Positions 20,095 to 44,991 of a stretch of DNA of 64,000 bases are shown here, in pieces (the stretch's first letter is position 1; every line of letters begins with the position of its first letter). This DNA comes from an uncultured Nitrospira sp. (lineage in GTDB: Bacteria; Nitrospirota; Nitrospiria; Nitrospirales; Nitrospiraceae). Both the position numbers and the translations under genes were made by a program. A model generated the notes under the pieces. The model had not been told where the DNA came from and did not search any database. It was given only the letters and a program-made list of their open reading frames with translations. Location: the NCBI GenBank assembly GCA_964398045.1, contig CAYNLM010000001.1, positions 13,964 through 77,963 on the forward strand. The letters run 5' to 3'.

Positions 20095-20778
20095 CTAATG
20101 AGAGGTAAGGGCGGCCCCGGACGCCTTAAAACTGCCGGCGTAAAATGCGGCTACCTGCGATCGCCGCCCGATCTGCAGCTTGGAATAGATGTTCGCGAGA
20201 TAGTTCTTGATGGTTTTCTCGCTCAGCTGGAGTTGGTCGGCAATTTCCTTGTTGGTCAAGCCTTGGGCCACCAGCGGCAGCAAGCGTTGCTCTTGTGGAG
20301 ACAGCAGCGGTCGTTTGGATTGTCCCGGCGAGGCATACACGTTTTTCAGCCAGTGCAAGGTGTGCTGGGTCAGGCGGGGATCGATCAAGGCATGCCCCGA
20401 GGCGACCGTCTTAATGGCGCGCACCAGCGCATCCGACGCGATGTCCTTGAGAATGTATCCCTGGGCGCCGGAAAGAATGGCCTCCAACACCGTATGGTCG
20501 TCGGCGAAGCTGGTGAGAAACAGCACCCGGGTATTCGGGCGGGCGGCGAGGATGTCGCGGGCGGCGTCCACTCCGCTGCCGTCGGGCAGACGAATGTCCA
20601 GGAGGACGACATCCGGTTTGAGGCGAAGGGTCAACTTGTTCGCCTCTTCCTTGCCTGCGGCCTGACCGACGACTTTCATGCCGGGCGTCAGGTCCAGAAC
20701 GGCTCCGAGTCCGATGCGGACCACTTCGTGATCATCGACGATCAGGAGACGGACCAGTTTCGATTTCGGCGTCCTCAT
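20095..20778 (-). CDS. NarL/FixJ-family response regulator (receiver + LuxR-type HTH)
   Basis: 'LLIVDDHEVVR', 'VVLLDIRLPDGSG', HTH 'LTNKEIADQLQLSEKTIKNYLANIYSKLQ'. ATG 20778 with GGAGG RBS. It overlaps the upstream kinase 3' end by 47 nt. The ORF track extends to 21006. Confidence 0.85.
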   Translation of the reverse strand: MRTPKSKLVRLLIVDDHEVVRIGLGAVLDLTPGMKVVGQAAGKEEANKLTLRLKPDVVLLDIRLPDGSGVDAARDILAARPNTRVLFLTSFADDHTVLEAILSGAQGYILKDIASDALVRAIKTVASGHALIDPRLTQHTLHWLKNVYASPGQSKRPLLSPQEQRLLPLVAQGLTNKEIADQLQLSEKTIKNYLANIYSKLQIGRRSQVAAFYAGSFKASGAALTSH

Positions 20779-23008
20779 GAGGGGCCTCCAAGGGAAGATC
20801 GATGGTGATACAGGTGCCGTGGCGCGGCTTGCTGTCCAGAGAAAACCGGGCATGGATGCGCTTGGCCCGCGCCGCCATGTTCGCGAGGCCGTGGCCGGGC
20901 TTGCGCTTGGTTTTGGGATCGACCCCGATGCCGTCGTCGCAAATCTGCATACGAATCGCTCCGTCGACACGGCTGAGCCGCACCCAGCGGTGGGTGGCCC
21001 GCGCATGGCGGATGCTGTTGCTCAACGCTTCTCGGGCGATATTGAGCAGTTGTTCTCCCTGCTCGGAGGTGATCATCGCGATCACGGTATCCTTGATGTC
21101 GAGCTCGGGAGCCGTCTCACCGGCCGGAGAGAAGGAGGCGGTCAGGTGCCGCAAGGCTTGTCCGAAATCCAGGGTGGTGGAGGTCTCTTGCCTCAACAAG
21201 GCGATGAACTGCCGGACGTCTCCGACCAGCCGATTGAGATGATCGATGGCTTGCGTGGTATACGATTTGGATTTGCGCGGAGCCTTGCTGAACGTCAGCT
21301 TGCTCGCTTCGAGCTGCATGCCGACGGCGTAGAGCGATTGGAGGATATTGTCGTGCAAGTCCTGGCTGAAGCGCTCGCGCTCTTCCGCGGCGCGGCGCCG
21401 CTCGGTGACATCCTGCACGACGGCCAGGAGGAGAGGGCCCGGGTGGTTCGGGAGTTCCATGTGCGTGGCCTTCACCGAAACCCAGATCGTGTCGCCCGAT
21501 TTCCGCACGTAGCGCTTCTCAAGCGTATACTGCGGCTGCTCGCTGCGATAAAACGCCTCCGCGAGTGTCAGATTCTTAGGAAGGTCGTCCGGATGCGTGT
21601 AGAGATCATACGTGCGTCCGATCAAATCCTCTTCGCCGTAGCCGGTCAGGGCGCAAAAGGCCTTGTTGGCGCTGAGAAGGCGTCGCTGGTTATCCAGGAT
21701 GACCAAGCCGATCGGGGCTTCCGCCACGAAGCGCTGCAGCCGTAATTCGCTGGCCCGCAGGGCATCTTCGGCCAATTTGCGTTCCGTCATGTCCTCGCAG
21801 ACAATCAGGATGGTGATGCGGCCCTGGCCGTCCACGATACTTCTCGCCCGCTCTTTGACCCAGAGCCGGCTGCCATCCTTCCGGACTTTGCCGATCTCCC
21901 ACGCAAATGTCTGGAGAGGATTTTCTGTGCAGATCCGGAGTTGGTCCAGTACCGTCGGATGGTCGGCGGGATCGGACATCAGCAGGACGGAGGCGCCGAG
22001 GAGCTCGTCCCGTCTATACCCCAGATGCTCCGCTCCGAATCGGTTGACGGAGAGGATCCTTCCTGTCGGGCATAGGGTGAAATACATGGAAGGGTTATCC
22101 TCGTAGAACGAAAGGTACCGTTGCTCGCTCTCTTTGAGCGCGGCCTCGGCCCGTGTATGCTCCGTCACATCTTCGTAGAGCGCGAACGCCAGCAACAAGC
22201 AACCCTCGCCATCGCGAAGGAAGGTCGGCCAGAGCCTGAGGTCCAACAACGTTCCATCTTTCCGGCACCGGCGGATATGGACCGGGCCGGCAATGGATCC
22301 GGCCAATCCTTGCTGAAACAAGGCGTCGGCGTCGGCCTCTTCGCCGGCCGGCACATACGGCAGCTCCCGGCCCAGGACTTCTTCGGCCGTCCATCCAAAC
22401 AGGGTTGTGGCCGCCGGATTCCACCCTGTCACTCTTGCTTCCGCATCCACGGACACGATCGGAAGCGGGGATGCGGCAATCAACATCTGAAGCGTCCGAT
22501 TGGATTCCCGCAGCGCCTGTTCGGTCCGGCTGCGCTCGGAAATATCGAGCGCCATCGCGACGAAGGCGTCTCGGCATTGAAACGTGGAGAGTTGCAGGCG
22601 AATGTCGGTCGGATACCGGCTGCCGTCTTTCCGGCGATGCAGCGTGGTGATGGTGACGGAGTCGGCTGCCCCCGCGCGTAAGGGGTCGGTCAGCGCCTGG
22701 AAATCATCCGGCGTGATGTCGGGCGTCAGCGCGAAGGGGGGCATGGCTCGAAGCTCGTCCATAGTGTAGCCCAGGTTGACGAGCGCGCTGCGATTCACAT
22801 AGAGCCATTCAAAGGTATCGGTGGAAAAAATGTAGATTTCGTTGAGCGAACCGTCCAGGAGGCGGCCGAAATCCCGCTCTCGCTCTTGTGATGCCGTGGG
22901 CCTTGCCGGAGGAAGCGTGCCTCGGCGCTCCAACTCGCGGTGTATGGCCTGAATGTGAGCGAGGAGTTCCTCGGTGCTGACTTTTTGGGCGCTCGCATCG
23001 ACACCCAT
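20732..23008 (-). CDS. Cytoplasmic multi-PAS sensor histidine kinase (HisKA_3 / NarX-type)
   Basis: Four PAS-like blocks. HisKA_3 'FSQDLHDNILQSLYAVGMQLE'. HATPase 'EALSNSIRHA', 'CDDGIGV', 'GHGLANMAARA'. First ATG at 23008; the ORF track begins at TTG 23029. Confidence 0.85.
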   Translation of the reverse strand: MGVDASAQKVSTEELLAHIQAIHRELERRGTLPPARPTASQERERDFGRLLDGSLNEIYIFSTDTFEWLYVNRSALVNLGYTMDELRAMPPFALTPDITPDDFQALTDPLRAGAADSVTITTLHRRKDGSRYPTDIRLQLSTFQCRDAFVAMALDISERSRTEQALRESNRTLQMLIAASPLPIVSVDAEARVTGWNPAATTLFGWTAEEVLGRELPYVPAGEEADADALFQQGLAGSIAGPVHIRRCRKDGTLLDLRLWPTFLRDGEGCLLLAFALYEDVTEHTRAEAALKESEQRYLSFYEDNPSMYFTLCPTGRILSVNRFGAEHLGYRRDELLGASVLLMSDPADHPTVLDQLRICTENPLQTFAWEIGKVRKDGSRLWVKERARSIVDGQGRITILIVCEDMTERKLAEDALRASELRLQRFVAEAPIGLVILDNQRRLLSANKAFCALTGYGEEDLIGRTYDLYTHPDDLPKNLTLAEAFYRSEQPQYTLEKRYVRKSGDTIWVSVKATHMELPNHPGPLLLAVVQDVTERRRAAEERERFSQDLHDNILQSLYAVGMQLEASKLTFSKAPRKSKSYTTQAIDHLNRLVGDVRQFIALLRQETSTTLDFGQALRHLTASFSPAGETAPELDIKDTVIAMITSEQGEQLLNIAREALSNSIRHARATHRWVRLSRVDGAIRMQICDDGIGVDPKTKRKPGHGLANMAARAKRIHARFSLDSKPRHGTCITIDLPLEAPHEDAEIETGPSPDRR

Positions 23009-23204
23009 GGGGCAGTCCTCAAACGGCAAGGTCGGATGCCGGCCTGGAAGGATCGGGGACTTCCGGAGGTCTCCCGGTCGGCAGAAAACTACGATACGAC
23101 AGTGACGATGAAGAATTCAATCGAAGAGAAGAGACCTAAGTAGTCGAACAAGATGCGCTGATTAGGACTCAGAACCGGTGTCGCGCAAACGAAAGGCTGC
23201 GCTC

Positions 23205-23885
23205 CTATGTCCGTAGGAGAGGATCGTCCGTCGTGGAGAGGGTGGCTCGAAGAAACCACGCGACGGCTTCCGTTCGCCGCTTGACGTGGAGCTTGTCGAA
23301 AATATTGGCGAGGTAGTTTTTCACGGTTTTGTCGCTGAGGCGCAACTGGAGCGCGATCTCTTTGTTCGTTTTGCCGTCAGCCAGGAGCGGCATGATCAGG
23401 CGCTCCTGAGGCGACAGTTGAGCCAGCCCCTGGGGCAGGACTCCCATGCGCGCTCTGGTCCTGATCCAATGGAGCGCCTGATGGGCGATCCGGGGGTCGA
23501 GGTAACCGCGGCCTTCGGCCACGGTGTGAATGGCGCGAATCAAATCGTCGGTCCTGACATCCTTGAGCACATAGCCGTGCGCGCCGCTTTGGACCGCCGC
23601 CACCACGGTCGCGTCCTCCGCATAACTGGTCAGCACCAGGATGCGGATATCCGGGGAAACGGCCAGCAGGCGCCGGCAGACGTCCATGCCGGAGGCATCC
23701 GGGAGCCGGACATCCAGCAGGACCAACTGTGGATGCAGACGTTCGACGAGCGCGACCGCGTCTGCGGCCGTTTCCGCCTCTCCAATGACGCGCAGGTCTC
23801 CTTCGAGGTCCAGAAATGACCGCAGTCCTTTCCGGACCAGTTCGTGATCGTCGACGATGATGAGGCGGATCGGGGGGCGTTTCAT
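23205..23885 (-). CDS. NarL/FixJ-family response regulator
   Basis: 'LIIVDDHELVR', 'LVLLDVRLPDASG', HTH 'KTNKEIALQLRLSDKTVKNYLANIFDKLH'. ATGA overlap with the upstream kinase. Confidence 0.9.
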   Translation of the reverse strand: MKRPPIRLIIVDDHELVRKGLRSFLDLEGDLRVIGEAETAADAVALVERLHPQLVLLDVRLPDASGMDVCRRLLAVSPDIRILVLTSYAEDATVVAAVQSGAHGYVLKDVRTDDLIRAIHTVAEGRGYLDPRIAHQALHWIRTRARMGVLPQGLAQLSPQERLIMPLLADGKTNKEIALQLRLSDKTVKNYLANIFDKLHVKRRTEAVAWFLRATLSTTDDPLLRT

Positions 23886-24682
23886 ACGGGTGTCAAAATG
23901 GGTTCTAAGGTAAATTCGGCCATGATCTTCGTGCCGCGACCGACGTGCGAGCGGATCGTCAGCTGGCCGCCGAGCTTTTTGGCTCGTGCCGCCATATTGG
24001 AGAGGCCGTACCCGGCGACCTGTTGCCGGTGCGGTTCGAAGCCGTTCCCATTGTCGTCAATCGCCAACCGCACGCGTGACCCGCGTGTCTGCAGAACGAC
24101 GCTGGCTTGGGTGGCGCCTGAGTGGCGGGCGCAATTGCTGAGCGCTTCCCTGACGATGTTCAGGATTTCCCGTTCTTCTTCACCCGTGAGAAGGTCCACC
24201 GCCGCCGGCTGGAGCTCCAAAGCAATCTGCATCCGGCCGACTTGTGAGTACGTATTGACCAGTCCGCGGAGCTCCGAGGAGAGGTCGAATTCCTCGACGG
24301 TGCCGCGTTCCAGCCCGGTGATCATCCGCCGAATGTCCTGAATCAACGCATTCAACTGATCGACCACCTGCCCGGTCGACGATCGGTTCGTCCCGGAGAC
24401 CGCCGAACTGAGGCGATGGGATTGTTCGAGGTTGAGCCCGATGGCATACAGGGATTGCAGCACGCAGTCGTGGAGGTCCCGGCCGATCCGCCCACGGTCT
24501 TCCAGCAGGGCGCTGAGGCGTTGCTCGGACGCACGTAAGGCCTGTGCCAGATCGCCGGACTGTGGGGAGCCTGCCTTCGGCGGGGCACCAGTCGGGGTTT
24601 CAGCATGGAGCCCGCGTGGGGCGTCGGACACTCGTTGGTTTGATCCGTGAACCAGACGCAGTCGTTGCTCGTCCCGTCTCAT
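23882..24682 (-). CDS. Small soluble HisKA_3 histidine kinase without recognisable sensor domain
   Basis: 'IGRDLHDCVLQSLYAIGLNLE', 'EALSNCARHS', 'DDNGNGF', 'GYGLSNMAARA'. Only about 60 aa precede the DHp. ATG 24682 has a GAGG RBS; the ORF track begins at GTG 24730. Confidence 0.8.
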   Translation of the reverse strand: MRRDEQRLRLVHGSNQRVSDAPRGLHAETPTGAPPKAGSPQSGDLAQALRASEQRLSALLEDRGRIGRDLHDCVLQSLYAIGLNLEQSHRLSSAVSGTNRSSTGQVVDQLNALIQDIRRMITGLERGTVEEFDLSSELRGLVNTYSQVGRMQIALELQPAAVDLLTGEEEREILNIVREALSNCARHSGATQASVVLQTRGSRVRLAIDDNGNGFEPHRQQVAGYGLSNMAARAKKLGGQLTIRSHVGRGTKIMAEFTLEPILTPV

Positions 24683-24825
24683 AGAAGCCTCGCAAGAGAT
24701 GAGTTCCAAGTCGGCGCCCCCGCGCCTCACGATTGTTCAATTATCGGCTCGACATCATACGTCGTCCGGCGGGGTGTTCGTCACCTGTCGCACCCGCCAG
24801 GGGCCGGCGTCCGTCATCCATGGGT

Positions 24826-25374
24826 TTATGATGCAATCAATCCGGTCCCCAGAGCCCGTGCGACGGCTTGTGTGCGGGAAGTGACGTCGAGTTTTTCAAA
24901 GATGCCGCCCACATGAAACCGGACCGTCCGTTCGCTCAGTCCAAGAATTCTGGCGATTTCCCAGTTGGTCTTCCCATCCTTCATCCACTGCAAGACCGTC
25001 AGTTCACGGGGCGAGAGGTGGCAGGAGCGCTTGGCGCACGCCATGGATCCTGGCTTGGCGCTGTCGATCCGAGCCTGGGCTTTGGAAAGACAGAAAATGA
25101 AATAGCTCAACACGTGATAGGTGCGCTCGCTCGATGAGGGACTCTTTCCACGGAATCCGCCCTGTTCCCACCTGTCCGACCCCCGGTCGTGGGTGTGGCC
25201 GAATAGTTCCGGCAACTCGGTCACCAGCCGTTCAAGGTCGCGTCTCTTTTCTGCGACGAGGATGCGGTGCATGAACGAGAGGGCGGCGACTAGTTCGCCT
25301 TTTGAGAGACAGTTGAAGACGTCGGTTACCGGCAACCTCGTGTGCTCTTCAGTCATAGAATGGATTTGTTTCAT
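24826..25374 (-). CDS. LuxR-family transcriptional regulator, QS-type HTH with short (~115 aa) atypical N-terminal domain
   Basis: C-terminus 'LSPRELTVLQWMKDGKTNWEIARILGLSERTVRFHVGGIFEKLDVTSRTQAVARAL' resembles LasR/LuxR-type HTH (GKTSWEIS...TVxFH). It begins 46 nt downstream of the P450 stop. Confidence 0.75.
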   Translation of the reverse strand: MKQIHSMTEEHTRLPVTDVFNCLSKGELVAALSFMHRILVAEKRRDLERLVTELPELFGHTHDRGSDRWEQGGFRGKSPSSSERTYHVLSYFIFCLSKAQARIDSAKPGSMACAKRSCHLSPRELTVLQWMKDGKTNWEIARILGLSERTVRFHVGGIFEKLDVTSRTQAVARALGTGLIAS

Positions 25375-25420
25375 GTGTGCCCTCGCTATTGAATGAAATC
25401 GTTGTAGAGCACTCTTTCTT

Positions 25421-26635
25421 TCATGCCGAATCGGTGGTCTTCAGTTTCAGAGGTAATTGTTGGTATCCGAACACCACGAGGCTAGTGCTCTGCCGAATAG
25501 CCGGGGATGTCCCATGCCCAATAACTGGGTAGCGATCGAGCAGCGTGTTGAGCGTAATGGATGCCTCTGCGCGCGCAAGTGGCGCCCCGAGGCAGTAATG
25601 GATGCCCATGCCGAAGGCGACATGGTTGCGGAGGTCACGATCAAGCCGGAATTCATCGGGATTCGGAAATTCGGCGGGGTCGCGATTGGCGGCTCCATAG
25701 TAGATCGAGACGGTGGCGCCTTTTGGAAGCCGGACGCCGGAGATTTCTACTTCGCGTGTCGTGTGACGAGGAAGGCGTTGAATGGGACTTTCGAAGCGCA
25801 GCGTTTCTTCGATGACCGCATCGACCAGACTGCGATCTGTTCGAAGCTGTCCCCAAAGTTCAGGGCGATCCGCCAGAATGCCGAGCATGTTACCAATGAG
25901 GTTGGTGGTGGTTTCATTGCCGGCGATGAGGAGGAGCATGCAAAACCCGAGGATCTCTGCATCGTCCAGCGACTCTCCTTCAACCTCTGCTTCCACCAGC
26001 GCTGTGATGAGATCTTCTGCTCCGTGAGTGCGTCTTGCAGCGGCCATCTTCCCAAAATATGTCGCCATCTCTCTGTTACTGGCGGCTCGTTCCTCCGGTG
26101 CCATTGAACTGAAAGCAAGGAAAGCGTCGCTCCAGCGCTTCAGCGTCACATAATCTTCACCAGGTATGCCTAACAGGCGGGCGATGACCTTGACCGGGAG
26201 GGGGATTGCATACGACGAAATCATGTCCCGCTCTCCCGTCCCGATCTCATCCAACAGTTCATCCACCACACTCTGAATCCATGGTGTCAGAGCCTCAATC
26301 CGTTTTAGCGTGAAAGTCTTGTTGACCAAGCGGCGGAAGCGAGTATGGCGTGGGGGATCGTCTTGGATGAGTGCGAGTTTGGGTGCAATTTTCCCGGCCA
26401 GCGGGTTTTGACCGGACACGAACGTGTCGTGATCTCTGAGAGCGTTGTACACGTCGTGATACTTCATCAACGCCCAAGCCCTGATGGGCTCATCAATGCC
26501 GGAAACCGCGCCGGCAGGCAGAAACACATAGTTCAAGGGCGAGTGTTCGCGCAGCTCGTGATAGTGAGGGTAGGGATCGGCAATCACGTCCGGACTTGAC
26601 AGTCGGTCTGCACTGATGGCGAAGGTCGTACTCAT
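25421..26635 (-). CDS. Cytochrome P450
   Basis: I-helix 'LLIAGNETTTN', ExxR 'EETLRF', Cys-heme loop 'FGMGIHYCLGAPLA'. ATG 26635 has a GAGGAGG RBS. The ORF track extends to 26704. Confidence 0.9.
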   Translation of the reverse strand: MSTTFAISADRLSSPDVIADPYPHYHELREHSPLNYVFLPAGAVSGIDEPIRAWALMKYHDVYNALRDHDTFVSGQNPLAGKIAPKLALIQDDPPRHTRFRRLVNKTFTLKRIEALTPWIQSVVDELLDEIGTGERDMISSYAIPLPVKVIARLLGIPGEDYVTLKRWSDAFLAFSSMAPEERAASNREMATYFGKMAAARRTHGAEDLITALVEAEVEGESLDDAEILGFCMLLLIAGNETTTNLIGNMLGILADRPELWGQLRTDRSLVDAVIEETLRFESPIQRLPRHTTREVEISGVRLPKGATVSIYYGAANRDPAEFPNPDEFRLDRDLRNHVAFGMGIHYCLGAPLARAEASITLNTLLDRYPVIGHGTSPAIRQSTSLVVFGYQQLPLKLKTTDSA

Positions 26636-26694
26636 GTCTCGGTCCTCCTCATCGGAAGGTGGCCACTTAGGATGTTCAGGTTTTCCTGGATCCG

Positions 26695-28053
26695 CTATTT
26701 CCATTGAGCAACATCTTTATGACGCGAGTTCGCGAGCGCCGGCGCGGCCAGCGGCTCGTGATAAGTTCCCAGGCTTTCGTGAATCAGCATGTCTTGCGAC
26801 ATGGCTACGTTGACTCCTGAGACGGCAATGACGATGTTCTTACCCCCGAAACCGAAACTATTGATCAACGCTCGTTGCATGGTGCGTGGCCGTCCGATGC
26901 ACGCCACATAGTCCAGATCGCATAGGGGATCAGGATGGGTCAGGTGAAGAGTCGGTGGGATGAACTGATGTTGCAGCGCGAGGACTGTTCCAACAAGTTG
27001 GAAGGCCCCGCTCGCCGCAAAGGCATGTCCAAGCGCAGATTTGAATGAACTGACCGGGACGCGGTAAGCCTGGGGTCCCATTGCATCTTTGATGGCCATG
27101 GTTTCGATCAGATCCAATTCAACTGTGCCAAGCCCGCAGGCATTGATGTAATCCACCTCTTCGGGGAACCAATGAGCGGATGTGATCGCTCGCTCAATTG
27201 AGCGACGATGTTCTTTGCCGGTTTCGTCAGGACGAGCCATGGAGTACGCGTCCGTGGTAAATGCCCACCCTTCCAGCTCGGCATAGATCCGAGCGCCCCG
27301 CCGTTCGGCATGTTCTGCCTCTTCCAGGATCAGGCAGCCGGCCCCTTCTCCCAACACAATCCCGCAGCGCGTTTGATCGAACGGGCGGGGAAGATTGCGG
27401 ATTGTTCCTCCTTGGTCCGGGGCCAAGGTTCGGCCTGCGTCCATCGCGGAGAAGATTGTGGGATGCAGCGGCGCTTCAGCTCCTCCGGCAATGACGATAT
27501 CCACGTCATGGGAACGGATGAGATCGTAGGCCCGGCCAATGGCGTTTGCCGTGGACGAACAGCCGATGGAATAGGTCTCACATTCCCCATGAGTCCCCAA
27601 CGCGATCGAGACCTCGGCCGAGACGGCGTTCGGAAAGGTCGTGGTCATGGTGAAAGGGTTCGTGTGTTTGTATTGCTTCGCCAGCATGGAATCATGCGCT
27701 TCAAACGCCTCCTTCAATCCTCCCACCGATGTGCCGAAGCACACCCCTACCCGTTGACGATCTTCCTGGTCCAAATCCAATGCGGCATCCCGGCCGGCCA
27801 TGAGCGCCGAGGCCACGGCGAATTGCGACACGCGGCCCATCCGGCGGGCTTTTTTGGGTTGAATGAAATCAGTTGCGTCAAAATCGGTGATTTCGCCGGC
27901 GAGCGACGCGTTGAATGGCGCGGTATCGAAACTGGTGATGGGCTTGATGCCGGTTTCCCCACGGCTCAACAGGTGCCAAAACATGCCGAGATCGCATCCG
28001 AGCGGTGACACGACTCCTAACCCGGTGATGACGACACGTCGGTGACTTGTCAT
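26695..28053 (-). CDS. FabF-like beta-ketoacyl synthase (KAS I/II fold) with atypical active site
   Basis: Aligns by eye with E. coli FabF along its length ('RVVITGLGVVSPLG', active-site Cys in 'YSIGCSSTANAIG', 'SSFKSALGHAFAASG', 'NSFGFGGKN'). The first catalytic His motif 'NAHGTST' reads 'NACGLGT'. Confidence 0.85.
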   Translation of the reverse strand: MTSHRRVVITGLGVVSPLGCDLGMFWHLLSRGETGIKPITSFDTAPFNASLAGEITDFDATDFIQPKKARRMGRVSQFAVASALMAGRDAALDLDQEDRQRVGVCFGTSVGGLKEAFEAHDSMLAKQYKHTNPFTMTTTFPNAVSAEVSIALGTHGECETYSIGCSSTANAIGRAYDLIRSHDVDIVIAGGAEAPLHPTIFSAMDAGRTLAPDQGGTIRNLPRPFDQTRCGIVLGEGAGCLILEEAEHAERRGARIYAELEGWAFTTDAYSMARPDETGKEHRRSIERAITSAHWFPEEVDYINACGLGTVELDLIETMAIKDAMGPQAYRVPVSSFKSALGHAFAASGAFQLVGTVLALQHQFIPPTLHLTHPDPLCDLDYVACIGRPRTMQRALINSFGFGGKNIVIAVSGVNVAMSQDMLIHESLGTYHEPLAAPALANSRHKDVAQWK

Positions 28054-29378
28054 GAGTGCACCTCTTCATGTTCATGCAGCGACGAAAGATTGGCGCCCTC
28101 ATCAAGATGGCTCTGATGCCACGCGGCGAAATGATCCCGATGCGCGTGAGGGACCGATTCGTTTGGATAAAACTTATCGTAAAAGCCCACGTCCAAATGA
28201 TGGGCTTGAAAGGCAATAACCGATTTAAAGGCATCGGCATGAGCGGGAAACCGCCCGTAGGTCCGATAGACGTAATTGCAAAAGTGAATGACTGCTTCGA
28301 TGGCGCGTTGATCGTGAGGCATGATCTGCGATTTGTCTTCAGCACTTGCCCATGGCCGGCTTGTGGGACTGGTGTAAATTCCACCGACTCCGAACTTTGA
28401 GTCGACAAGACTCAACACCGCCTCCTCAATGGAGGAGACAAACGGAGGGCAGGGACCTTCCCACAGGTTGGCCAGCCCTACAGGGTTCGACCGCACTCCC
28501 GCCACACCTGATGACTTAAACGAAAACCCCAGACCTGAAAAAATCTCCGGTTCAAGTCCCAGAAGGTGCCGCCCGCTGCCGACGCTTTGAATGCCGCCGC
28601 CCAGGCCGATCGCTTGAGACATCAAGAACAGGTTCTGACAGACCAAACCCTGCTCTTGAATGGCGACGTCGCTCATCGCTGCATCGAGTTCTCGGAGGGT
28701 CATGACCCGGTTGGTGGTGGGATTGTCGTGGAGATGCCCGCCTCGACTACGGCGAAAGGAGTCCAGGCCGCAACCTGCATCGCCGTTATCGGTATCGATG
28801 AAAAAGTAGCCGTACTCCTCGCTGAGAAGCACCAGAAGGAGATTGAGATAGACCCGTGCGACTTCTGTGACGGGAATCATATAGAGCGTGCCTGGGCGAT
28901 TGGTGTACCACTGATTGAACGAGAGCATGTACGGAAGGCGGCGAGGAATCTCCAACCGACGTTGCTGCAAGGTGATCAGCTCAGGGGGAATGCCGCTCTC
29001 GGGATGGGATACGGCCGAAGCGAAATACACGCCTTCGTCGTCGGTCAGAAAGAGCTTCGTAGTATTAGCCGCACAGGCGCTGGCGATCGTTCTGCCTTGG
29101 AAATTCATAATGGCCATTCCTTGGCCATCTTCACGGCCTGTTCGGCGGACGTATTGCATATCGGCCAAATGTCGCCCTGTCTCGCCGACGCCGGCGAACA
29201 AAAGATAGCGAATCTCTTCTCGGCTTAGAGGGACTGGAGGCATGGTGCTTCGATACCGAAGCGGTCCCGCCGGCAGTTCCATTCCGCAACCGAACCGACG
29301 TGTCTTGCGCTGCTCCAAGAGATCGAGCAACATGTGTACTGCAGCAGATTTGGTAATCTGGCATTCAGCGGTGACCAT
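28050..29378 (-). CDS. Uncharacterised 442-aa protein, probably nitroreductase-superfamily (FMN) fold
   Basis: 'LLEQRKTRRFG' near the N-terminus and 'AIQEQGLVCQNLFLMSQAIGLGG' resemble nitroreductase-family signatures. Strong AAGGAGGG RBS. ATGA overlap with the downstream ketosynthase. Confidence 0.5.
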   Translation of the reverse strand: MVTAECQITKSAAVHMLLDLLEQRKTRRFGCGMELPAGPLRYRSTMPPVPLSREEIRYLLFAGVGETGRHLADMQYVRRTGREDGQGMAIMNFQGRTIASACAANTTKLFLTDDEGVYFASAVSHPESGIPPELITLQQRRLEIPRRLPYMLSFNQWYTNRPGTLYMIPVTEVARVYLNLLLVLLSEEYGYFFIDTDNGDAGCGLDSFRRSRGGHLHDNPTTNRVMTLRELDAAMSDVAIQEQGLVCQNLFLMSQAIGLGGGIQSVGSGRHLLGLEPEIFSGLGFSFKSSGVAGVRSNPVGLANLWEGPCPPFVSSIEEAVLSLVDSKFGVGGIYTSPTSRPWASAEDKSQIMPHDQRAIEAVIHFCNYVYRTYGRFPAHADAFKSVIAFQAHHLDVGFYDKFYPNESVPHAHRDHFAAWHQSHLDEGANLSSLHEHEEVHS

Positions 29379-29430
29379 AAGTCCCTCCTTTGTGTGATGG
29401 AAAAGATAAGTGAAGCGCGAAAGGATAGGA

Positions 29431-29448
29431 CCTACCCGAATGGGTAGG
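29431..29448. promoter_or_regulatory. 18-bp palindrome CCTACCC-GAAT-GGGTAGG upstream of the nitroreductase-like/KAS/P450 operon (candidate LuxR operator; alternatively luxR-gene terminator)
   Basis: Perfect 7+7 inverted repeat with a 4-nt spacer. It lies 53-70 nt upstream of the operon start codon (29378) and 116 nt downstream of the upstream luxR-type gene stop. Confidence 0.35.
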
Positions 29449-29563
29449 CTAAAGACCAGCCTTGGCGAGCGGGCATTTGAGTAGCAGGGGACAGGATCTA
29501 AGTTAGAATGGACACGACTGCCTATACAGCAGTGGAGGGACAGGAAGGATGTGGGAGGTTTAT

Positions 29564-30349
29564 CTAGTCTTCGCGCTTATGGGGCGAGGGCAGAAGCAAT
29601 CCAGAAGAATTACACTGCCACTGGGCAACTGCAGACCAGCGATTCTCAACTCCACCCAATTTTTGATAGATGTTCTTGAGGTGGAACTTGATGGTGTTCA
29701 AGCTTACGTTCAGGATGACCGAGATCTCCCAATTCGTCTTGCCTTCGGCTACCCAACGCATGATTTCCTCTTCGCGAGCAGTCAGCTCTATCTTCTTCTC
29801 CGGTGTGCGGTTTCCTTCGGACCACGTTGTCGCCCGCATATAAGCCAGATGAAAATGAGGAGCGAGAATTTGCATCATAGTCCGCAACTTCCAGAGCGCT
29901 TTTTGATCAAAGTTGCTATAGACGAACCAGGTGCAAAGGCCGAGTACCCCTCGTACTCCAATAGAGAGGCAAGATTTTATTCCAAAATCGAGTTTTAAAT
30001 TCGTGACCTCTCTTGGAACAATTAGTTCAGGGGAATCTTCGCTTGAAACCATGTTAATTCCGGTTCGCTGCAAGAGCTGAATGGCGGGATCAGAAACAAA
30101 TCCTTGCGTGACGTACAATTCATGGAGTTCGGAATTGTAGTTCGTCTGGACAATCTGGAAAGCTTTTTGCTGAACATTGAAGGCACCACAGGCGGAAAAT
30201 TGATACGGAATGAGTGAACTCATCGCCGAAGTCAACATGGGCAACTGGTCTCTGCTTTGCACGCTCCGCACCTGGTGCATGATTTCACCCAGATGCTGAA
30301 ATTCTTTCCGGGATGGATACTGAAGGCTTTCCGGGCCCCGAAAAATCAC
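29564..30349 (-). CDS. LuxR-family transcriptional regulator, QS-type HTH with ~190-aa N-terminal (autoinducer-binding-sized) domain
   Basis: C-terminus 'LTAREEEIMRWVAEGKTNWEISVILNVSLNTIKFHLKNIYQKLG'. The N-terminal domain contains 'ELYVTQGFVSDPAI'. The listed start is GTG; an alternative ATG lies at 30280. The gene is visibly AT-richer than its neighbours. Confidence 0.75.
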   Translation of the reverse strand: MIFRGPESLQYPSRKEFQHLGEIMHQVRSVQSRDQLPMLTSAMSSLIPYQFSACGAFNVQQKAFQIVQTNYNSELHELYVTQGFVSDPAIQLLQRTGINMVSSEDSPELIVPREVTNLKLDFGIKSCLSIGVRGVLGLCTWFVYSNFDQKALWKLRTMMQILAPHFHLAYMRATTWSEGNRTPEKKIELTAREEEIMRWVAEGKTNWEISVILNVSLNTIKFHLKNIYQKLGGVENRWSAVAQWQCNSSGLLLPSPHKRED

Positions 30350-37897: not shown

Positions 37898-38044
37898 GCT
37901 GGAGTGTCCTCCTTGTGCCGGTAGCCATTCTAGCGGGGAAGGGGACCCCTCGCCAGGAAAAGGGCGGAAGTTGCATGAGCGGAAGCGGGCTTCAGGATTG
38001 GATTGGCGACGATTGAGAGCGTATGGGCGTGAACGAAATCACGA

Positions 38045-38911
38045 TCAGGCAGGGCTGGTTTCCGTCACAGTGGCTGCGGGCACATGGGCCCGCTGTTGAA
38101 GTTTATGGGCGATGACCGCGCCGAGCAACAGGAGTACGGCTGAATAGTACACCCAGAGCAGGAGGAGCACGACTTCCAGCAGTGACCCGTACAGGCGAAC
38201 GTACACCGTCGCGTATCCGCTGTAGGTGACGAACAACAGCTTGGCCGCGACCCACAGGACTCCGAAGGTCATGGCTCCGACCATCGCCTCTCGCCATTCA
38301 GGGCGACGGCGCGGCACATAACGGTACAAGAGGCTCACCGTCAGGAAGGCTAAGACGAAGGGAAGCGTATAGGTGAGCAGGAAATCGTGGGCCGCGAGAC
38401 CGACGAGATCGAGCCCCCACAGCCGGGGAACATAGCCGATCAGAAAATTGATCGTTTGGGTCGCGACGTAGGACACGATGAGCAAGAGTCCGGTCGCTCC
38501 GAGCGACGCGACCGAAATGGCGGTGGAGATCAGTGGATGCCGCCGCCAGGTGCTTTCGAAGACGACATTCAGGGCGTAATCCAGTTCATAAAAGACCAGT
38601 GCTCCGAACCAGGCGAAAGACAAAAAGACGATCCAGCGGACACTTTCCAACGCACTGATCCGGTGCAGCTCTTCAGCGAGCCGTTCACCCAATGAGGGCA
38701 AGAATCCTTTCAGGAAGCTCAGCAGAAATTGTTCGCCGATCACGTCCTGAGTCACCAGGAAGCTGATCCCATAGAGCAGGAGGAACACGAGGGGAAAGAG
38801 AGACAGCAGGGAGAAGAAGGCCAGAGAGGCGGCCAGGCTGGCGCACCCATGTCGCTGAAAGGCCTTGAACACATCACGAATGAAGCGGAGGACGTCCATG
38901 AAACTTTTCAT
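38045..38911 (-). CDS. YihY/BrkB (virulence factor BrkB / 'ribonuclease BN-like') family membrane protein
   Basis: 'ASLAFFSLLSLFPLVFLL', 'YGSLLEVVLLLLWVYYSAVLLLLGA', six TM helices. Confidence 0.75.
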   Translation of the reverse strand: MKSFMDVLRFIRDVFKAFQRHGCASLAASLAFFSLLSLFPLVFLLLYGISFLVTQDVIGEQFLLSFLKGFLPSLGERLAEELHRISALESVRWIVFLSFAWFGALVFYELDYALNVVFESTWRRHPLISTAISVASLGATGLLLIVSYVATQTINFLIGYVPRLWGLDLVGLAAHDFLLTYTLPFVLAFLTVSLLYRYVPRRRPEWREAMVGAMTFGVLWVAAKLLFVTYSGYATVYVRLYGSLLEVVLLLLWVYYSAVLLLLGAVIAHKLQQRAHVPAATVTETSPA

Positions 38912-38969
38912 AGAGAGAAGGGTAGCATGGCCTGCGCCGACCCGCTGATCCGACGAGAAAGTCGGGGAT

Positions 38970-40448
38970 CTACTTCAATGTCAGCACGGCTTGGGCCGCG
39001 AAGTTCACGATCGGATTGGGATAGATCCCGAGGATGACCACGCCGGCCACTGCACAGGCGAGCACGATGGACAATGTCGGCGACATGACGAGCCGCGGTG
39101 AGACATCCGTAAGTGTCTCCGGCTCGCGCATATACATGACCATCACGAGACGCAGATAGTAATAGGCTGAAATTGCGGCGAAGACGAGGGCTAGGACGGC
39201 GAGCCAGGTCATTCCCGCTTCCACCGCGGCCATGAAGACGTAAAACTTCCCGATGAAGCCGGCTGTCGGAGGAAGGCCGGCCAGCGAGACCATGAACACC
39301 AGCATGAGCAAGGCGCCTACGGGATGGCGTTTGGCGAGGCCGGTGAAATCTTCAATCTCTTCCCCCTCAAGCCCGCCTTTTCGCAGCATCGCGACGATGG
39401 CAAAGGCGCCGAACGTCATGAACGCATAGAGGGCGATGTAAAGGAGCACGCTCGCGATGCCTTGCGCACCGCCCGTTGCGCCGCTCAAACGTCCGGCCGC
39501 CACCACGCCGATTAGTGCATAGCCGGCGTGGGCAATACTGCTGTAGGCCAGCATCCGCTTGATGTTGGTTTGCACCAGCGCCACGACATTGCCGAGGACC
39601 AGCGTGGCGATGCAGAGCAGCAAGAAGATCGCGGACCAGTCGGCCTTCAGTCCTCCAAGGCCTTCGATGAAGACGCGCAGAAATGCCCCGAAACTTGCGG
39701 CCTTCGAGGCTACGGCCATGAAGGCCGTCACGGAGGTCGGTGCGCCTTGGTAGACGTCGGGCGTCCACATATGGAAGGGCACGACGGCCAATTTGAATGC
39801 GAACCCGACGGCCAACAAAATGGTGGCGAACAGGAGCAAGGGATCATCAAGACTTCGTCCGCCGATGGCCGCGGCGATGGCGGGAAGCCTGGTGCTGCCG
39901 GTCGCTCCGTACAGAAGCGAGATACCGTAGAGCAGAATGCCGGATGAAAAGGCGCCGAGCACAAAGTATTTCGCCGAGGCTTCCAGCGAGCGGGGCTCCG
40001 ATCGTTTGAGCCCTGCCATCACGTAGAGCGAAAGGGACATCAGTTCGGTGCCGAGATAGATCGTCAGGAGGTCGGCAGCCGACACCATCACCATCATGCC
40101 GCAGAGCGCGAGCAGCACGAATCCGTAGTATTCCCCGAAGTACAGCCGTTCTTCTTTTAGATAGGAAAAGGACAAGAGCACCGTGAGGCCGGTCACGAAA
40201 TAGAGCAGCAGTTTCCAGAAGGCTCCATAGCCGTCGATGACCACAAGCCCGCCGAAGGCCGTCGCGGGATGGGCCATCTGCGAAGCGGTCAGTCCCATGC
40301 AGATCGCGAGAGTCCCGAGACTCAGCCAGGCCAGGCCGTCCTTCTTGGAGGCATGGATCACCGGATCCAGCGCGAGGACGAGGCAGGCGGCCGTGATGAC
40401 AAGCAGCTCGGGAAGGATGAGGAGAAGGTCGTTGGCCGCGAAGGTCAT
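38970..40448 (-). CDS. nuoN: NADH-quinone oxidoreductase subunit N
   Basis: 'FHMWTPDVYQGAPTSVTAFMA', antiporter-like, last gene of the operon. ATGA overlap with nuoM. Confidence 0.9.
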   Translation of the reverse strand: MTFAANDLLLILPELLVITAACLVLALDPVIHASKKDGLAWLSLGTLAICMGLTASQMAHPATAFGGLVVIDGYGAFWKLLLYFVTGLTVLLSFSYLKEERLYFGEYYGFVLLALCGMMVMVSAADLLTIYLGTELMSLSLYVMAGLKRSEPRSLEASAKYFVLGAFSSGILLYGISLLYGATGSTRLPAIAAAIGGRSLDDPLLLFATILLAVGFAFKLAVVPFHMWTPDVYQGAPTSVTAFMAVASKAASFGAFLRVFIEGLGGLKADWSAIFLLLCIATLVLGNVVALVQTNIKRMLAYSSIAHAGYALIGVVAAGRLSGATGGAQGIASVLLYIALYAFMTFGAFAIVAMLRKGGLEGEEIEDFTGLAKRHPVGALLMLVFMVSLAGLPPTAGFIGKFYVFMAAVEAGMTWLAVLALVFAAISAYYYLRLVMVMYMREPETLTDVSPRLVMSPTLSIVLACAVAGVVILGIYPNPIVNFAAQAVLTLK

Positions 40449-41995
40449 GGATGGACCTCCGCAGAGACAGAGACCGGTTCCTTCTCCAGTGCCGCGGGAT
40501 CCTGGCCGGCCGCTGAAGCCGGTTCCGGAACCGCGGGCAACGACCGCGCGATGACCTTCTCCACGCTGGCATGCATACGCGTCAAAATGGGATTGGGAAA
40601 GAGCCCGATCCAGAAGACCAGCACGATCAGCGGCACCAGCGTGACCATTTCACGCTGATCGAGGTCGCGGAGCTTGGGCAGAAAATGCGGCGATGGGACA
40701 CCGAATGCGACGCGCTGGACCATCCAGAGGATGTAGGCGGCGGCGAGAATAATGCCGAGCGATGCCAAGGCCGTCGCGATTTTGCTCCAGAGGAAGGTCC
40801 CCGCCAATACCAAAAACTCGCCGACGAAGCTGTTCGTGCCGGGCAAGCCGAGCGACGACAGCGCAAGAATGACCAAGAGCGTGGCATAGCGCGGCATCGG
40901 CTTCGTGAGTCCCACGTTGTCGGCGATCTGCCGGCTGTGGGTGCGTTCGTAAATGATGCCCACGCAGAGGAAGAGGCCGCCGGTGGTAATGCCGTGGTTG
41001 ACCATCTGCATCACGGCGCCTTCGATGCCTTGGATGTTGAACATGAACAAGCCGAGCGTCACGAATCCCATGTGGCTGACGCTTGAATAGGCGATGAGTT
41101 TCTTCAAATCCGCCTGGGCCAGGGCCATATAGGCGCCATAGATGATCGCGACGATCGAGAGGATGACCATGAGCGGGGTGAAGGCGAGCGAGGCATCCGG
41201 CAACATCGGGAGGCTGAAGCGCACAAACCCATACGTGCCCATCTTGAGCAGGACGCTTGCGAGAATGACGCTGCCGGCGGTCGGCGCTTCCACGTGGGCG
41301 TCCGGCAACCAGGTGTGGAAGGGGAACATCGGGACCTTGACGGCAAACGCGGCAAAGAAGGCGAGGAACAGCCAGAATTGCAGCGAGGTCGAATAGGCGC
41401 CTTGGCTCAATTGCAGAATGTCGAAGGTGTGGCCTTGGAAATACAGCACCAGAATCGCGACGAGCAGCAGCACGCTTCCGGCCAGCGTGTAGAGAAAAAA
41501 TTTGATCGCGGCATAGAGGCGATTCGGTCCGCCCCAGACACCGATCAACAGATACATCGGGATCAACATCGCTTCCCAGAAGACGTAAAACAGCACAAAG
41601 TCGAGCGCGGCGAATACGCCGATCATCGCGCCTTCCATGACCAACAGCATGGCCATGAAACTCCTGATTCTGGTTTCAACGGACCGCCAGGAAACTAATA
41701 CGCAGAGCGGCAGGAGCACCGTCGTCATCAAGACCAGCGGCAAGCTGATGCCGTCGAGGCCGAGCCGGTAATGGATCGGCGGCGCCGTGACCCACGCGAC
41801 TTGTTCGGCGAACTGCATCTGACCGGAGGAATCGTCGAAGAGCCACCAGAGTGGCAATGAAATCAGCAGGTCGGCGACGGTGATCACGAGCGCCGCCAGC
41901 CGCACGCTCGTTTCTTTGACAAAGAACAGCGCGACCGCTCCCGCCAGCGGAATAAAGATCAACAGTGTCAGCCAAGGAAAGGTCGCGGTCGTCAT
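40445..41995 (-). CDS. nuoM: NADH-quinone oxidoreductase subunit M
   Basis: 'FHTWLPDAHVEAPTAGSVILA'. ATG 41995 ('MTTATFPWL'); the ORF track begins at TTG 42016. Confidence 0.9.
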   Translation of the reverse strand: MTTATFPWLTLLIFIPLAGAVALFFVKETSVRLAALVITVADLLISLPLWWLFDDSSGQMQFAEQVAWVTAPPIHYRLGLDGISLPLVLMTTVLLPLCVLVSWRSVETRIRSFMAMLLVMEGAMIGVFAALDFVLFYVFWEAMLIPMYLLIGVWGGPNRLYAAIKFFLYTLAGSVLLLVAILVLYFQGHTFDILQLSQGAYSTSLQFWLFLAFFAAFAVKVPMFPFHTWLPDAHVEAPTAGSVILASVLLKMGTYGFVRFSLPMLPDASLAFTPLMVILSIVAIIYGAYMALAQADLKKLIAYSSVSHMGFVTLGLFMFNIQGIEGAVMQMVNHGITTGGLFLCVGIIYERTHSRQIADNVGLTKPMPRYATLLVILALSSLGLPGTNSFVGEFLVLAGTFLWSKIATALASLGIILAAAYILWMVQRVAFGVPSPHFLPKLRDLDQREMVTLVPLIVLVFWIGLFPNPILTRMHASVEKVIARSLPAVPEPASAAGQDPAALEKEPVSVSAEVHP

Positions 41996-42073
41996 GGGCA
42001 ACCGCTCCCAAGGCAAAAGGCAAAAGTAACAAGTAAAAGGTTTGCGAGAGAGTTTTGGAACATCACTTTTTCC

Positions 42074-43969: not shown

Positions 43970-43975
43970 ACTAAA

Positions 43976-44074
43976 TTGGTGATGTGGTGATCTGGTGATT
44001 TGGTGAAGTGACCAAGGGATTCCATAAACGACTTCGCTAAATCACGCAATCACCAAATCGCACCTTCCTTCACC
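43976..44074. repeat. Inverted word-repeat element (period-8 TGGTGA x4 / complementary ATCACC-type x3-4), nuoL/nuoK spacer
   Basis: TGGTGA occurs at 43977, 43985, 43993 and 44001. The complementary arm at 44041-44074 has period 8. GATTTGGTGA (43997-44006) pairs perfectly with TCACCAAATC (44050-44059). Confidence 0.7.
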
Positions 44075-44375
44075 ATTTCAACAGGTTGAAATCTTCCACG
44101 TTGATGCTGGACTTGGACCGGTGCAAGGCAATGATGATGGCCAGTCCGACTGCCACTTCCGCCGCCGCCACCGTTAACGCAAAAAAGACAAAGACCTGAC
44201 CGCCCAGGTCCTGAAGATGCTCTGAAAATGCGACGAAGTTAATGTTGGTGGCGTTCAACATCAGCTCGACCGATAACAGGATCGCGATGATGTTGCGCCG
44301 AATCAGGACGCCGGCGACGCCCGTCAGAAACACAATGGCACTGAGAATGAGATAGTACGACACAGGAATGGTCAT
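44070..44375 (-). CDS. nuoK: NADH-quinone oxidoreductase subunit K
   Basis: '[28 protein letters not shown]...[12 protein letters not shown]'. The 5' extension in the ORF track (to 44477) merely translates the heptad repeat. Confidence 0.9.
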
Positions 44376-44383
44376 GAAATGCT

Positions 44384-44478
44384 CGTGATGCGTGATGCGT
44401 GATGGGTGACGTGTTGGAAGAAGGAGCGGATCGCCTCTGAGCCACTCCCGCATGACGCATAACGGATCACGCTTCACG
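44384..44478. repeat. Inverted word-repeat element (CGTGATG x3 + GGTGACG; complementary arm 22/28), nuoK/nuoJ spacer
   Basis: Heptads at 44384-44411. The right arm at 44451-44478 overlaps the nuoJ stop. Confidence 0.7.
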
Positions 44479-44991
44479 TCCTCCGACGTCCTTCTTGGCC
44501 AGGATGATGGCGCCGATCATGGCGACCAGAAGAATCAACGAAGCCACTTCGAACGGGTAGAGATAAGTCGAGAAGAGGGTTTCGCCGATGGCCAGGGTAT
44601 TTTCTCCCGTGACGGCGCCGGTCGTAGCGGTTGGGATTGCGCTACCTTCAGGCTGCGAGGCCGCGCTGCCTCCCGCCAGCAAGACCATGAACTCGATGAG
44701 GAGGGGCAAGCAGACAAATGCCGCGATCCGCCATTGGCTGTGGTAGCGGTCGTCGCGCTTGACGTTCAGCAGCATGACGACAAAGAGGTACAAGACCAGA
44801 ATGGCGCCGGCATACACGATGATCTGGACCGCCGCGAGGAATTCCGCGTGGAGGGTCACGTACAGCCCGGCGACATGGAAGAACATCACGAGCAGTGAAA
44901 GCGCGCTGTAAACGGGGTTTTTGAGCGCCACCACCAGGATGGCGGTAAGCGCAATCACTCCGGCGAAGTACCCAAAAAACAATTGCCCCAC
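44467..44991 (-). CDS. nuoJ: NADH-quinone oxidoreductase subunit J
   Basis: Position and TM pattern, '[20 protein letters not shown]', '[20 protein letters not shown]'. Confidence 0.9.

Follow-up and report, generated by a model that had tools for sequence, protein, structure and literature searches.

A conserved luxR, orfX and ketosynthase gene module in Nitrospira as a candidate signalling circuit independent of LuxI

Among the described systems closest to the one treated here are two from Photorhabdus, PpyS/PluR (photopyrones) and DarABC/PauR (dialkylresorcinols), where a LuxR protein with a substituted WYDPWG hallmark senses the product of a stand-alone ketosynthase and no LuxI is involved (PMC4414361). 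A second group is formed by the N-acyl-homoserine lactone (AHL) systems of Nitrospira itself, NmoI/NmoR, NjpI/NjpR and NspI/NspR1, which occupy the same neighbourhood as our genes (PMC8553950, PMC5767232, PMC12342949). These genes are found in a stretch of 64,000 nucleotides from an uncultured Nitrospira sp. (GenBank assembly GCA_964398045.1, contig CAYNLM010000001.1, positions 13,964 to 77,963; hereafter the window), and comprise on its minus strand a luxR-type gene (luxR1), a gene of an unnamed family (orfX), a ketosynthase (KS) gene, a cytochrome P450 gene and a second, short luxR-type gene (luxR2) (Table 1). The reading that we favour, tentatively and at a little under an even chance, is that of a non-AHL, autoinducer-like circuit in which the product of OrfX and KS, with or without the P450, would be the ligand of LuxR1.

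When compared with the Photorhabdus receptors, LuxR1 keeps the tyrosine and the aspartate of the hallmark (and also the proline) and loses both tryptophans and the glycine, much as PluR and PauR do, and its KS is paired with OrfX as the ketosynthase of the Dar system works with an oxidising partner. However, PpyS and DarB are similar to FabH, the β-ketoacyl-acyl carrier protein (ACP) synthase (KAS) III, whereas the KS described here derives from FabF (KAS II) and has no meaningful KAS III match. OrfX represents a new nitroreductase-fold family, unlike DarA (no NCBIfam match), and a lux-type box separates the neighbouring receptor and enzyme genes, unlike in the Photorhabdus systems, which moreover belong to the Gammaproteobacteria and not to the Nitrospirota. 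The module may work like PpyS/PluR or DarABC/PauR, but it is a member of neither. With respect to the Nitrospira AHL systems, luxR2, a degenerate lux box (Box B) and another box at 59696-59715 are their remains, but the window has no LuxI, LuxR2 has no ligand-binding domain, and LuxR1 is a distinct paralogue. We classify the module as one of the LuxR-solo, non-AHL signalling kind, distinct from the adjoining AHL systems. In the searchable literature, we found no description of the module, of its operator, of a Cys-Cys-His KS, of the cassette behaviour reported below or of signalling by a KS plus a nitroreductase.

The module was followed through 24 non-redundant loci of a genome collection and 77 metagenome loci, the latter retrieved with a DNA pattern encoding D-Y-[IV]-N-A-C-G-L-G-T. 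Directly 5′ of KS, orfX was present in all 73 loci with at least 400 nt of upstream sequence, and LuxR1 was encoded upstream in 48 of the 50 loci with at least 2.6 kb, the two exceptions being cut by the locus end. On the other side, among 41 loci with at least 3.5 kb of downstream sequence, NmoR plus NmoI followed in 8, a short LuxR2 in 8, and neither of them in 25. The conserved core is luxR1, orfX and KS, independent of LuxI. This arrangement, for which the first-pass annotation had proposed a synteny comparison, is kept across the Nitrospira loci and also in the more distant lineage L088 (GCA_043782855.1), where a LuxR with an Autoind_bind domain is followed by an orfX (49% identical) and a Cys-Cys-His KS. 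Between the window and Nitrospira moscoviensis, identity amounts to 67% for LuxR1, 65% for OrfX and 89% for KS.

LuxR1 joins a GerE helix-turn-helix (HTH) domain (PF00196, 66.4 bits against a cutoff of 23.5) to an N-terminal domain that matches Autoind_bind marginally (PF03472, 24.0 bits against a cutoff of 23). Its nearest solved relatives in a PDB sequence search are CviR, RhlR, SdiA, QscR, LasR and TraR, and its alignments span the ligand-binding domain with QscR (50-236), TraR (49-229) and RhlR (70-241). Two regulators of the quorum-sensing (QS) LuxR type had been proposed for this locus, both with an autoinducer-binding N-terminal domain to be looked for. The HTH is indeed common to the two, but they are not equivalent, as the N-terminal domain was recovered in LuxR1, by the Pfam score and the PDB alignments, and found no match in LuxR2. 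At the hallmark positions (W60, Y64, D73, P74, W88 and G113 in LasR numbering), LuxR1 of the window departs from the AHL type and reads L-Y-D-P-S-C against WYDPWG; its orthologues read [L/H/F/M/Y]-Y-D-P-S-C, whereas the NmoR proteins in the same alignment read WYDPWG. Both AHL-contacting tryptophans are missing from LuxR1 in all 52 loci compared. The N. defluvii member, with F-Y-D-P-gap-C, already appeared among the LuxR solos of a 2015 paper, no partner being noted (PMC4338825), and comparable WYDPWG substitutions are carried by the non-AHL receptors PluR and PauR (PMC4414361). Taken by its sequence, LuxR1 would be a QS-type LuxR with a non-canonical, non-AHL pocket. Its best full-length family match is EpsA (TIGR03020; residues 15-243 against model positions 4-244, 90.8 bits), and in contrast to the EpsA associated with XrtB/PEP-CTERM, there is no exosortase or exopolysaccharide locus nearby.

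Between luxR1 and orfX we found a palindrome, Box A, with the form CCTACCC-N4-GGGTAGG and usually extended to the 20-mer ACCTACCC-N4-GGGTAGGT. Of 27 Nitrospira genome loci, 26 have a single copy of Box A, invariably 5′ of orfX, and none of 57 orfX loci from outside the genus has one; in the 64-kb window it is the sole match, even when two mismatches are allowed. The arms do not vary, the 4-nt spacer does so freely (15 variants), and a TAnnnT hexamer follows 21-22 nt after the box in each of 24 distinct loci. This fixed spacing places the centre of the box near -42.5, and a position of about -42.5 is the classical one of a lux box in class II activation. Box A matches the lux box of NmoR and NspR1 in its 8-4-8 layout and its outer ACCT/AGGT, but its inner half-site is ACCC, as opposed to GGCG. 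The most parsimonious binder of this candidate operator would be LuxR1, because Box A is also present in loci without NmoR or LuxR2. A scan for the sigma-70 consensus gave no full promoter before orfX, which would fit a promoter that depends on an activator and has no -35 element. The ribosome-binding site described in the first-pass annotation was recovered as AAGGAGGG at 29383-29390.

The palindrome was also considered as an intrinsic terminator of luxR1, a simple scan having flagged it as a terminator-like hairpin. This possibility was rejected for the following reasons: the loop varies between invariant arms, conservation does not extend to the T-tail, the distance to the -10-like hexamer is constant, and the palindrome occurs at sites without a gene end, lying between divergent starts in the N-type loci. 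A separate observation concerns several loci (for example L001 at 9889-9932, L007, L008 and L010), where Box A forms the centre of a much longer perfect palindrome, each arm gaining up to 13 base pairs. The outer sequences differ between these loci, pointing to compensatory changes in the arms, and the extension is missing in other loci, the window included.

A further line of evidence comes from the LuxR1 pocket and the P450 genes of the same locus. In the 52 loci, the residue equivalent to LasR W60 is Phe wherever there is no P450 (24/24), Leu (10) or Met (1) when a CYP107-like P450 lies downstream, and His when a divergent CYP97/3A-like P450 is present (9/9), while the one locus with both P450s has Tyr. 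Full separation of the three main P450 states was achieved by two of the 371 LuxR1 columns, the equivalents of LasR W60 and R61, both of which are ligand-contact residues in LasR. The co-variation is nonetheless partly confounded by linkage and shared ancestry, as the divergent P450 gene adjoins luxR1, and the independent events are few, roughly 5 to 7 as judged from discordant trees that are simple neighbour-joining ones.

The receptor gene and orfX also diverge together. In a comparison of L008 with L010, KS is 98% identical, orfX 66% and LuxR1 64%; between L007 and L097, the flanks have 85-92% nucleotide identity and KS 85-98%, as against about 71% in luxR1 and 53-73% in most of orfX. Judged from these alignments, luxR1 and orfX appear to form a divergent cassette within otherwise near-identical genomes, and their joint divergence, far above the genomic background, is what is expected for cassettes of signal and receptor specificity. 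Together with the pocket/P450 co-variation, it argues indirectly that the KS product may be what activates LuxR1.

OrfX itself gave no match in Pfam, in NCBIfam or, as a single sequence, in the PDB. Its AlphaFold 2 (AF2) model, built on a diverse alignment, reached a mean predicted local distance difference test (pLDDT) of 88.6 and a predicted TM-score (pTM) of 0.89; it supersedes an earlier model from a shallow, Nitrospira-only alignment (pLDDT 72, weak Foldseek matches). The top Foldseek matches of the new model are all nitroreductases (3hj9 with E = 5.9e-6, 3hoi and 8cqs; E = 6e-6 to 6e-5, probability 1.0, target TM-score 0.52-0.64), followed more weakly by the natural-product oxidases BmdC, McbC and ThcOx (E = 7.6e-4 to 1e-2, probability 1.0), oxidases whose substrates are carrier-tethered intermediates, and the enone reductase CLA-ER is also among the matches. 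A family profile searched against the PDB converged on the same fold, with FRP (E = 1.8e-4), NfsA (3.5e-3), NfrA1 and AlbA in a range extending to 0.03, and 15 of the 17 matches were nitroreductase-family proteins. In three distant homologues, PF00881 scores of 12-16 bits, short of the cutoff of 23.5, all fall on the same stretch around helix-GLGG. The nitroreductase-like character first proposed for OrfX is upheld by both fold and profile, although in the Pfam check of the five proteins OrfX went without its expected family (PF00881), LuxR1, LuxR2 (GerE only), KS and P450 being matched.

The N-terminal motif of OrfX is RKTRRF in the window, with a family consensus RRSRRF that resembles the phosphate motif for flavin mononucleotide (FMN) of nitroreductases, and a central helix-GLGG motif is present as in FMN-binding nitroreductases. 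From these motifs, OrfX is probably an FMN-dependent dehydrogenase or reductase. It has in common with the BmdC, McbC and ThcOx/SagB type both the fold and a gene paired with a condensing enzyme, but differs in its length of about 440 aa, its large insertions and its C-terminal His-rich motif, and an azoline substrate is not plausible. That motif, QAHHLDxxFYD...HRxHxxxWH at residues ~388-425, is kept family-wide, distant phyla included, and could represent a metal site that the nitroreductase fold has acquired.

Beyond Nitrospira and the L088 lineage the orfX family is widespread: the genome collection includes at least 555 such loci, and grouping at 50% identity gives 928 clusters. Its clusters are annotated as hypothetical, and for ten diverse clusters all the source names were "hypothetical protein". 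An occurrence of orfX homologues apart from any LuxR gene was seen outside Nitrospira; inside the genus, LuxR1 lies upstream as counted above. The coupling of orfX, KS and LuxR is therefore lineage-specific, since the outside homologues occur without KS or LuxR. In 57 non-Nitrospira orfX loci there was no notable conserved neighbour; an ECF sigma/anti-sigma pair was present in 7 and a Fur-like gene in 6. Two distant homologues, P0151 and P0219, are fusions, one to an MpaB/Lcp-type oxygenase and the other to an acetoacetate-decarboxylase-like domain, a hint at oxidised lipid or beta-keto compounds as substrates of the wider family.

The KS carries PF00109 and PF02801 and is about 40% identical to FabF. 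It scores 423 with TIGR03150 (equivalog cutoff 493.75) and 417 with PRK07314 (subfamily cutoff 387). While the nucleophilic Cys (GCSST) and the second His (KSALGH) are kept, the first catalytic His is replaced by Cys, INACGLGT standing in place of the INAHGTST of FabF, and T305 by Leu, which bears out the first impression of an atypical ketosynthase. The resulting Cys-Cys-His triad is present in every Nitrospira orthologue with a readable motif and in L088. Without the His of the HGTGT motif, malonyl decarboxylation should be impaired, as it is in KS0 domains, and by this analogy the chemistry of KS is probably not standard elongation. KS resembles FabF in its full-length fold and in keeping the nucleophilic Cys, the Lys and the second His; with the non-elongating KS0 domains of trans-acyltransferase polyketide synthases it shares the lack of the HGTGT His needed for malonyl decarboxylation. 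Unlike FabF and KS0, the KS described here has an invariant Cys replacement and a changed T305, is free-standing and translationally coupled to a flavoenzyme-like protein, and ends in a conserved C-terminal tail. In the searchable literature, neither a Cys-Cys-His arrangement nor a relevant non-decarboxylative FabF variant was found. The tail spans about 40 residues beyond the FabF fold (26695-26830) and includes the motif HESLGTYHEPLAAPALA, which is kept in the group formed by the window and N. moscoviensis, other clades having a different tail; it may be a docking element.

The P450, which the first-pass annotation had listed with the two other enzymes of the operon, is not a core component, as it is missing from most loci and comes from two unrelated families. 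According to the locus, a P450 is absent, CYP107-like and 3′ of KS (as in the window), CYP97/3A-like and divergent from orfX (as in N. moscoviensis), or, in one case, of both kinds; the CYP107-like gene downstream of KS is confined to the loci that we call W-type. The window protein (PF00067, 145 bits) matches PikC, EryF and BioI in the PDB (E = 1e-72 to 1e-57). Orthology between the P450s of the window and of N. moscoviensis was considered and rejected, there being no tblastn match between these members of different clans. The L088 locus also has an AhpC-like gene, a vanadium-haloperoxidase-like gene and two open reading frames (ORFs) without family match. The two P450 families and this haloperoxidase-like gene are independently recruited, as is typical of small-molecule pathways. 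Also in L088, positions 6001-6176, between the divergent luxR and AhpC-like genes, consist of two direct copies of about 85 nt each.

The absence of LuxI has a history of its own. In N. moscoviensis the gene order is uvrC, luxR1, P450 (divergent), orfX, KS, nmoR, nmoI, HisKA_3 kinase, response regulator, PAS kinase and response regulator; apart from a missing P450, the order is the same in a further Nitrospiraceae genome. In the 64-kb window, tblastn with NmoI gave no luxI match, nor did a profile hidden Markov model (HMM) from six Nitrospira LuxI proteins run against the six-frame translation (best E = 0.088), so that the first description of an operon without LuxI stands. This is nevertheless a derived state, and the locus a decayed AHL locus, because relatives with the same P450 arrangement, the metagenomic L156 and L159, retain full-length NmoR and NmoI. 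The decay is visible in luxR2. Its HTH is intact (GerE, 78.6 bits against a cutoff of 23.5) and no Autoind_bind match is found; tblastn with NmoR aligns only the C-terminal 63 aa (70% identity), and a protein alignment also covers the first N-terminal helix, about 130 residues of the AHL-binding domain being deleted. The same deletion was found in L005, L006, L012 and L014, all of them without luxI. LuxR2 cannot sense a signal because its ligand-binding domain is deleted, and the sensing role that had been given to this second regulator has to be abandoned for that of an NmoR relic. What look like intermediate stages of luxI decay are seen in L124 (1820-2434) and L129 (2707-3132), where truncated and weak NmoI matches come after a short LuxR2.

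Operators of the AHL system have outlived the synthase. The experimentally validated Nitrospira lux box, that of NspR1, is ACCTGGCGGTTCCGCCAGGT (PMC8553950). Intact boxes of this type lie between nmoI and the kinase gene in N. moscoviensis (L001, 14618-14637), L003 and L025, and persist in the luxI-less L005 and L012. From this placement, direct control by the AHL receptor appears to be a conserved trait of the HisKA_3 kinase/response regulator pair, and the link to the downstream two-component genes suggested at first is plausible given the lux box in front of the HisKA_3 kinase. A second box, ACCTGGCGCATTCGCCAGGT at 59696-59715, has 3 mismatches to the NspR1 box and lies 21 nt upstream of a TAGTCT; it precedes a Kelch-repeat-like gene of 341 aa (58569-59594, minus strand) and a gene of 377 aa (57343-58476, minus strand). 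Being near-perfect, it indicates that an AHL-regulon promoter persists although luxI is gone.

The features of the locus are collected in Table 1. The five minus-strand genes lie at the positions given in the first-pass annotation, and the two kinase/response regulator pairs placed downstream of them are borne out by Pfam. The gap of 59 nt between KS and P450, also given there, requires M24 (26635) as the P450 start; a start at the first ATG makes the P450 gene overlap KS. Upstream, the neighbours of the luxR1 operon region are uvrC and dapF, and the close homologues of the genes of the region are all from Nitrospira. An Rfam scan of 23-31 kb gave no riboswitch or known RNA. Elsewhere in the window, at 38000-46000, the AT skew of the plus strand is strongly positive (0.2) over minus-strand nuoL/M/N-like genes, which encode three Proton_antipo_M proteins, and a NuoG-like gene is found at 46758-49427.

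Table 1. Genes and sequence elements of the module and its downstream neighbours in the window
Feature	Position	Strand	Description
luxR1	29564..30349	(-)	QS-type LuxR family: Autoind_bind-like N-domain and GerE HTH
Box A	29430..29449		20-bp dyad GCCTACCC-ATTC-GGGTAGGT; candidate LuxR1 operator
-10-like hexamer TATCTT	29403..29408	(-)	21 nt downstream of Box A
orfX	28050..29378	(-)	442 aa; unnamed family, nitroreductase-superfamily fold
KS	26695..28053	(-)	FabF-derived ketosynthase, Cys-Cys-His triad; 4-nt ATGA overlap with orfX
P450	25421..26704	(-)	CYP107-like class I P450; start at 26704 or 26635
luxR2	24826..25374	(-)	182 aa, GerE HTH only; truncated NmoR orthologue
Box B	24783..24802		Nitrospira-type lux box, degenerate; minus-strand sequence CCCTGGCGGGTGCGACAGGT
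TATGAT hexamer	24754-24759		23 nt downstream of Box B, before the HisKA_3 kinase gene
HisKA_3 histidine kinase	23882..24730	(-)	Pfam; no recognisable sensor domain; 71% identity to N. moscoviensis orthologue
NarL-type response regulator	23205..23885	(-)	Pfam and N. moscoviensis comparison
Multi-PAS HisKA_3 kinase	20732..23029	(-)	Pfam
Second NarL-type response regulator	20095..20754	(-)	Listed ORF to 21006; N. moscoviensis homology from ~20754

How could such a module work? Gene content, folds, the active-site change, the conserved box with its spacing, synteny and co-variation are computed results; binding of DNA by LuxR1, the chemistry, a diffusible product and its sensing by LuxR1 are the steps that we infer from them. 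LuxR1 would bind the 20-bp dyad at 29430-29449 and activate orfX-KS-P450-luxR2 as a class II activator. OrfX, a nitroreductase-fold and probably FMN-dependent dehydrogenase resembling the oxidases BmdC, McbC and ThcOx, would together with the Cys-Cys-His KS convert an acyl thioester, presumably an acyl-ACP, into a small acyl-derived molecule, which in this lineage the CYP107-like P450 would oxidise. The product would be the ligand of LuxR1, closing an autoinduction loop analogous to that of luxR-luxI, without LuxI or AHL. The ligand-independent LuxR2, encoded in the same operon, would probably still act on NmoR-type lux boxes, with those before the HisKA_3 kinase/response regulator operon and the Kelch-like gene at 58.6-59.6 kb as its putative targets. 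A small-molecule or signal function is favoured because of the lux-type box at about -42.5, the non-AHL pocket, the co-variation of pocket and P450 and the joint divergence of luxR1 and orfX. The earlier proposal that the cluster makes or senses a fatty-acyl-derived, oxidised signal finds in this comparative evidence an argument for a signal, while production of that signal is a step beyond it.

Several points weigh against such a circuit. For a signal pathway, two enzymes with no dedicated ACP, thioesterase or exporter are a minimal set; the His-to-Cys change may abolish condensation, in which case KS might make nothing new; and outside Nitrospira, in at least 555 loci, neither KS nor LuxR adjoins the orfX homologue, so the ancestral role of the family was something other than KS/LuxR-coupled signalling. 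The LasR numbering behind the pocket positions was checked only by recovering the expected hallmark residues. EpsA, the best full-length match of LuxR1, is an exopolysaccharide regulator without known ligand, and the score of 90.8 bits lies under the cutoff of 170. This last match is also an argument for a different role, which we consider unlikely but worth serious attention, with LuxR1 as the pathway-specific regulator of a specialised metabolite or lipid and the orfX-KS product as an end product (an antimicrobial, a pigment precursor, a surface or matrix lipid or a detoxification product, for example) rather than a ligand, LuxR1 responding to another cue or being constitutive. Synteny and the Box A promoter fit such a role equally well, and variable tailoring genes (two P450 families, a haloperoxidase-like gene and AhpC) are typical of secondary metabolism. 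It leaves unexplained, however, why only two ligand-contact columns of LuxR1 track the P450 content, and why the luxR1 and orfX cassette diverges in near-identical backgrounds.

The contiguity of the N. moscoviensis operon with nmoR, which makes a link to AHL signalling possible, also counts against an independent circuit. There, nmoR overlaps the 3′ end of the KS gene, and wherever luxI is present it adjoins the module (luxR1, orfX, KS, nmoR, nmoI). One could then see the module as an accessory of AHL signalling, orfX and KS supplying or modifying an unusual acyl chain for NmoI, or modifying or turning over AHLs, and the window as what was left after the loss of luxI. P450s are known to oxidise AHLs, and the window does contain a decayed NmoR and a decayed lux box. 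We nevertheless regard this as quite improbable: luxI is missing in 33 of 41 loci, where luxR1-orfX-KS and Box A are intact, KS is strongly constrained in luxI-less genomes (89% identity to N. moscoviensis, with an invariant triad), and LuxR1 has no AHL-contacting tryptophans in any of the 52 loci. Still more improbable, to the point that we give it very little weight, is a part in ordinary lipid metabolism, in which a FabF paralogue and an ene-reductase or desaturase-type OrfX would make unusual Nitrospira fatty acids, the LuxR being incidental and the palindrome the terminator of luxR1. The identity of about 40% to FabF, the score above the PRK07314 subfamily cutoff, the terminator-like label that a simple scan gives to the window palindrome and the CLA-ER match, CLA-ER being one of the nitroreductase-fold enone reductases that act on fatty acids, would all agree with it. 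Yet KS stays under the FabF equivalog cutoff (423 against 493.75) with its catalytic His replaced, the palindrome has invariant arms, a variable loop and no conserved T-tail, lies between divergent starts in the N-type loci and keeps a fixed distance to a -10-like hexamer, and the cassette-like hypervariability of orfX and luxR1 is unexpected for housekeeping lipid genes.

If the autoinducer-like circuit is real, its consequences reach beyond the window. Nitrospira are the dominant nitrite oxidisers, as well as complete ammonia oxidisers, of soils, fresh water and wastewater plants, and their cell-cell signalling has so far been discussed only as AHL-based. LuxI is reported in only about one third of the Nitrospirales genomes (PMC12342949), and a LuxI-independent circuit would be a candidate for communication in the remaining lineages, including organisms of the N. 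defluvii type. With somewhat more reserve than for the circuit itself, we put forward a new QS class in Nitrospira, LuxI-less lineages included, in which the OrfX family and the Cys-Cys-His KS would make a non-AHL autoinducer sensed by LuxR1, and luxR1-orfX(-P450) would be pherotype-like cassettes exchanged between close strains. Such a class would bring a new signal chemistry and two new enzyme types, the Cys-Cys-His KS and a nitroreductase-fold family of more than 900 clusters at 50% identity. The window also documents the decay of an AHL system, with luxI lost and a receptor that retains its HTH and operators but loses its ligand domain, and the apparent specificity cassettes beside it are open to direct testing.

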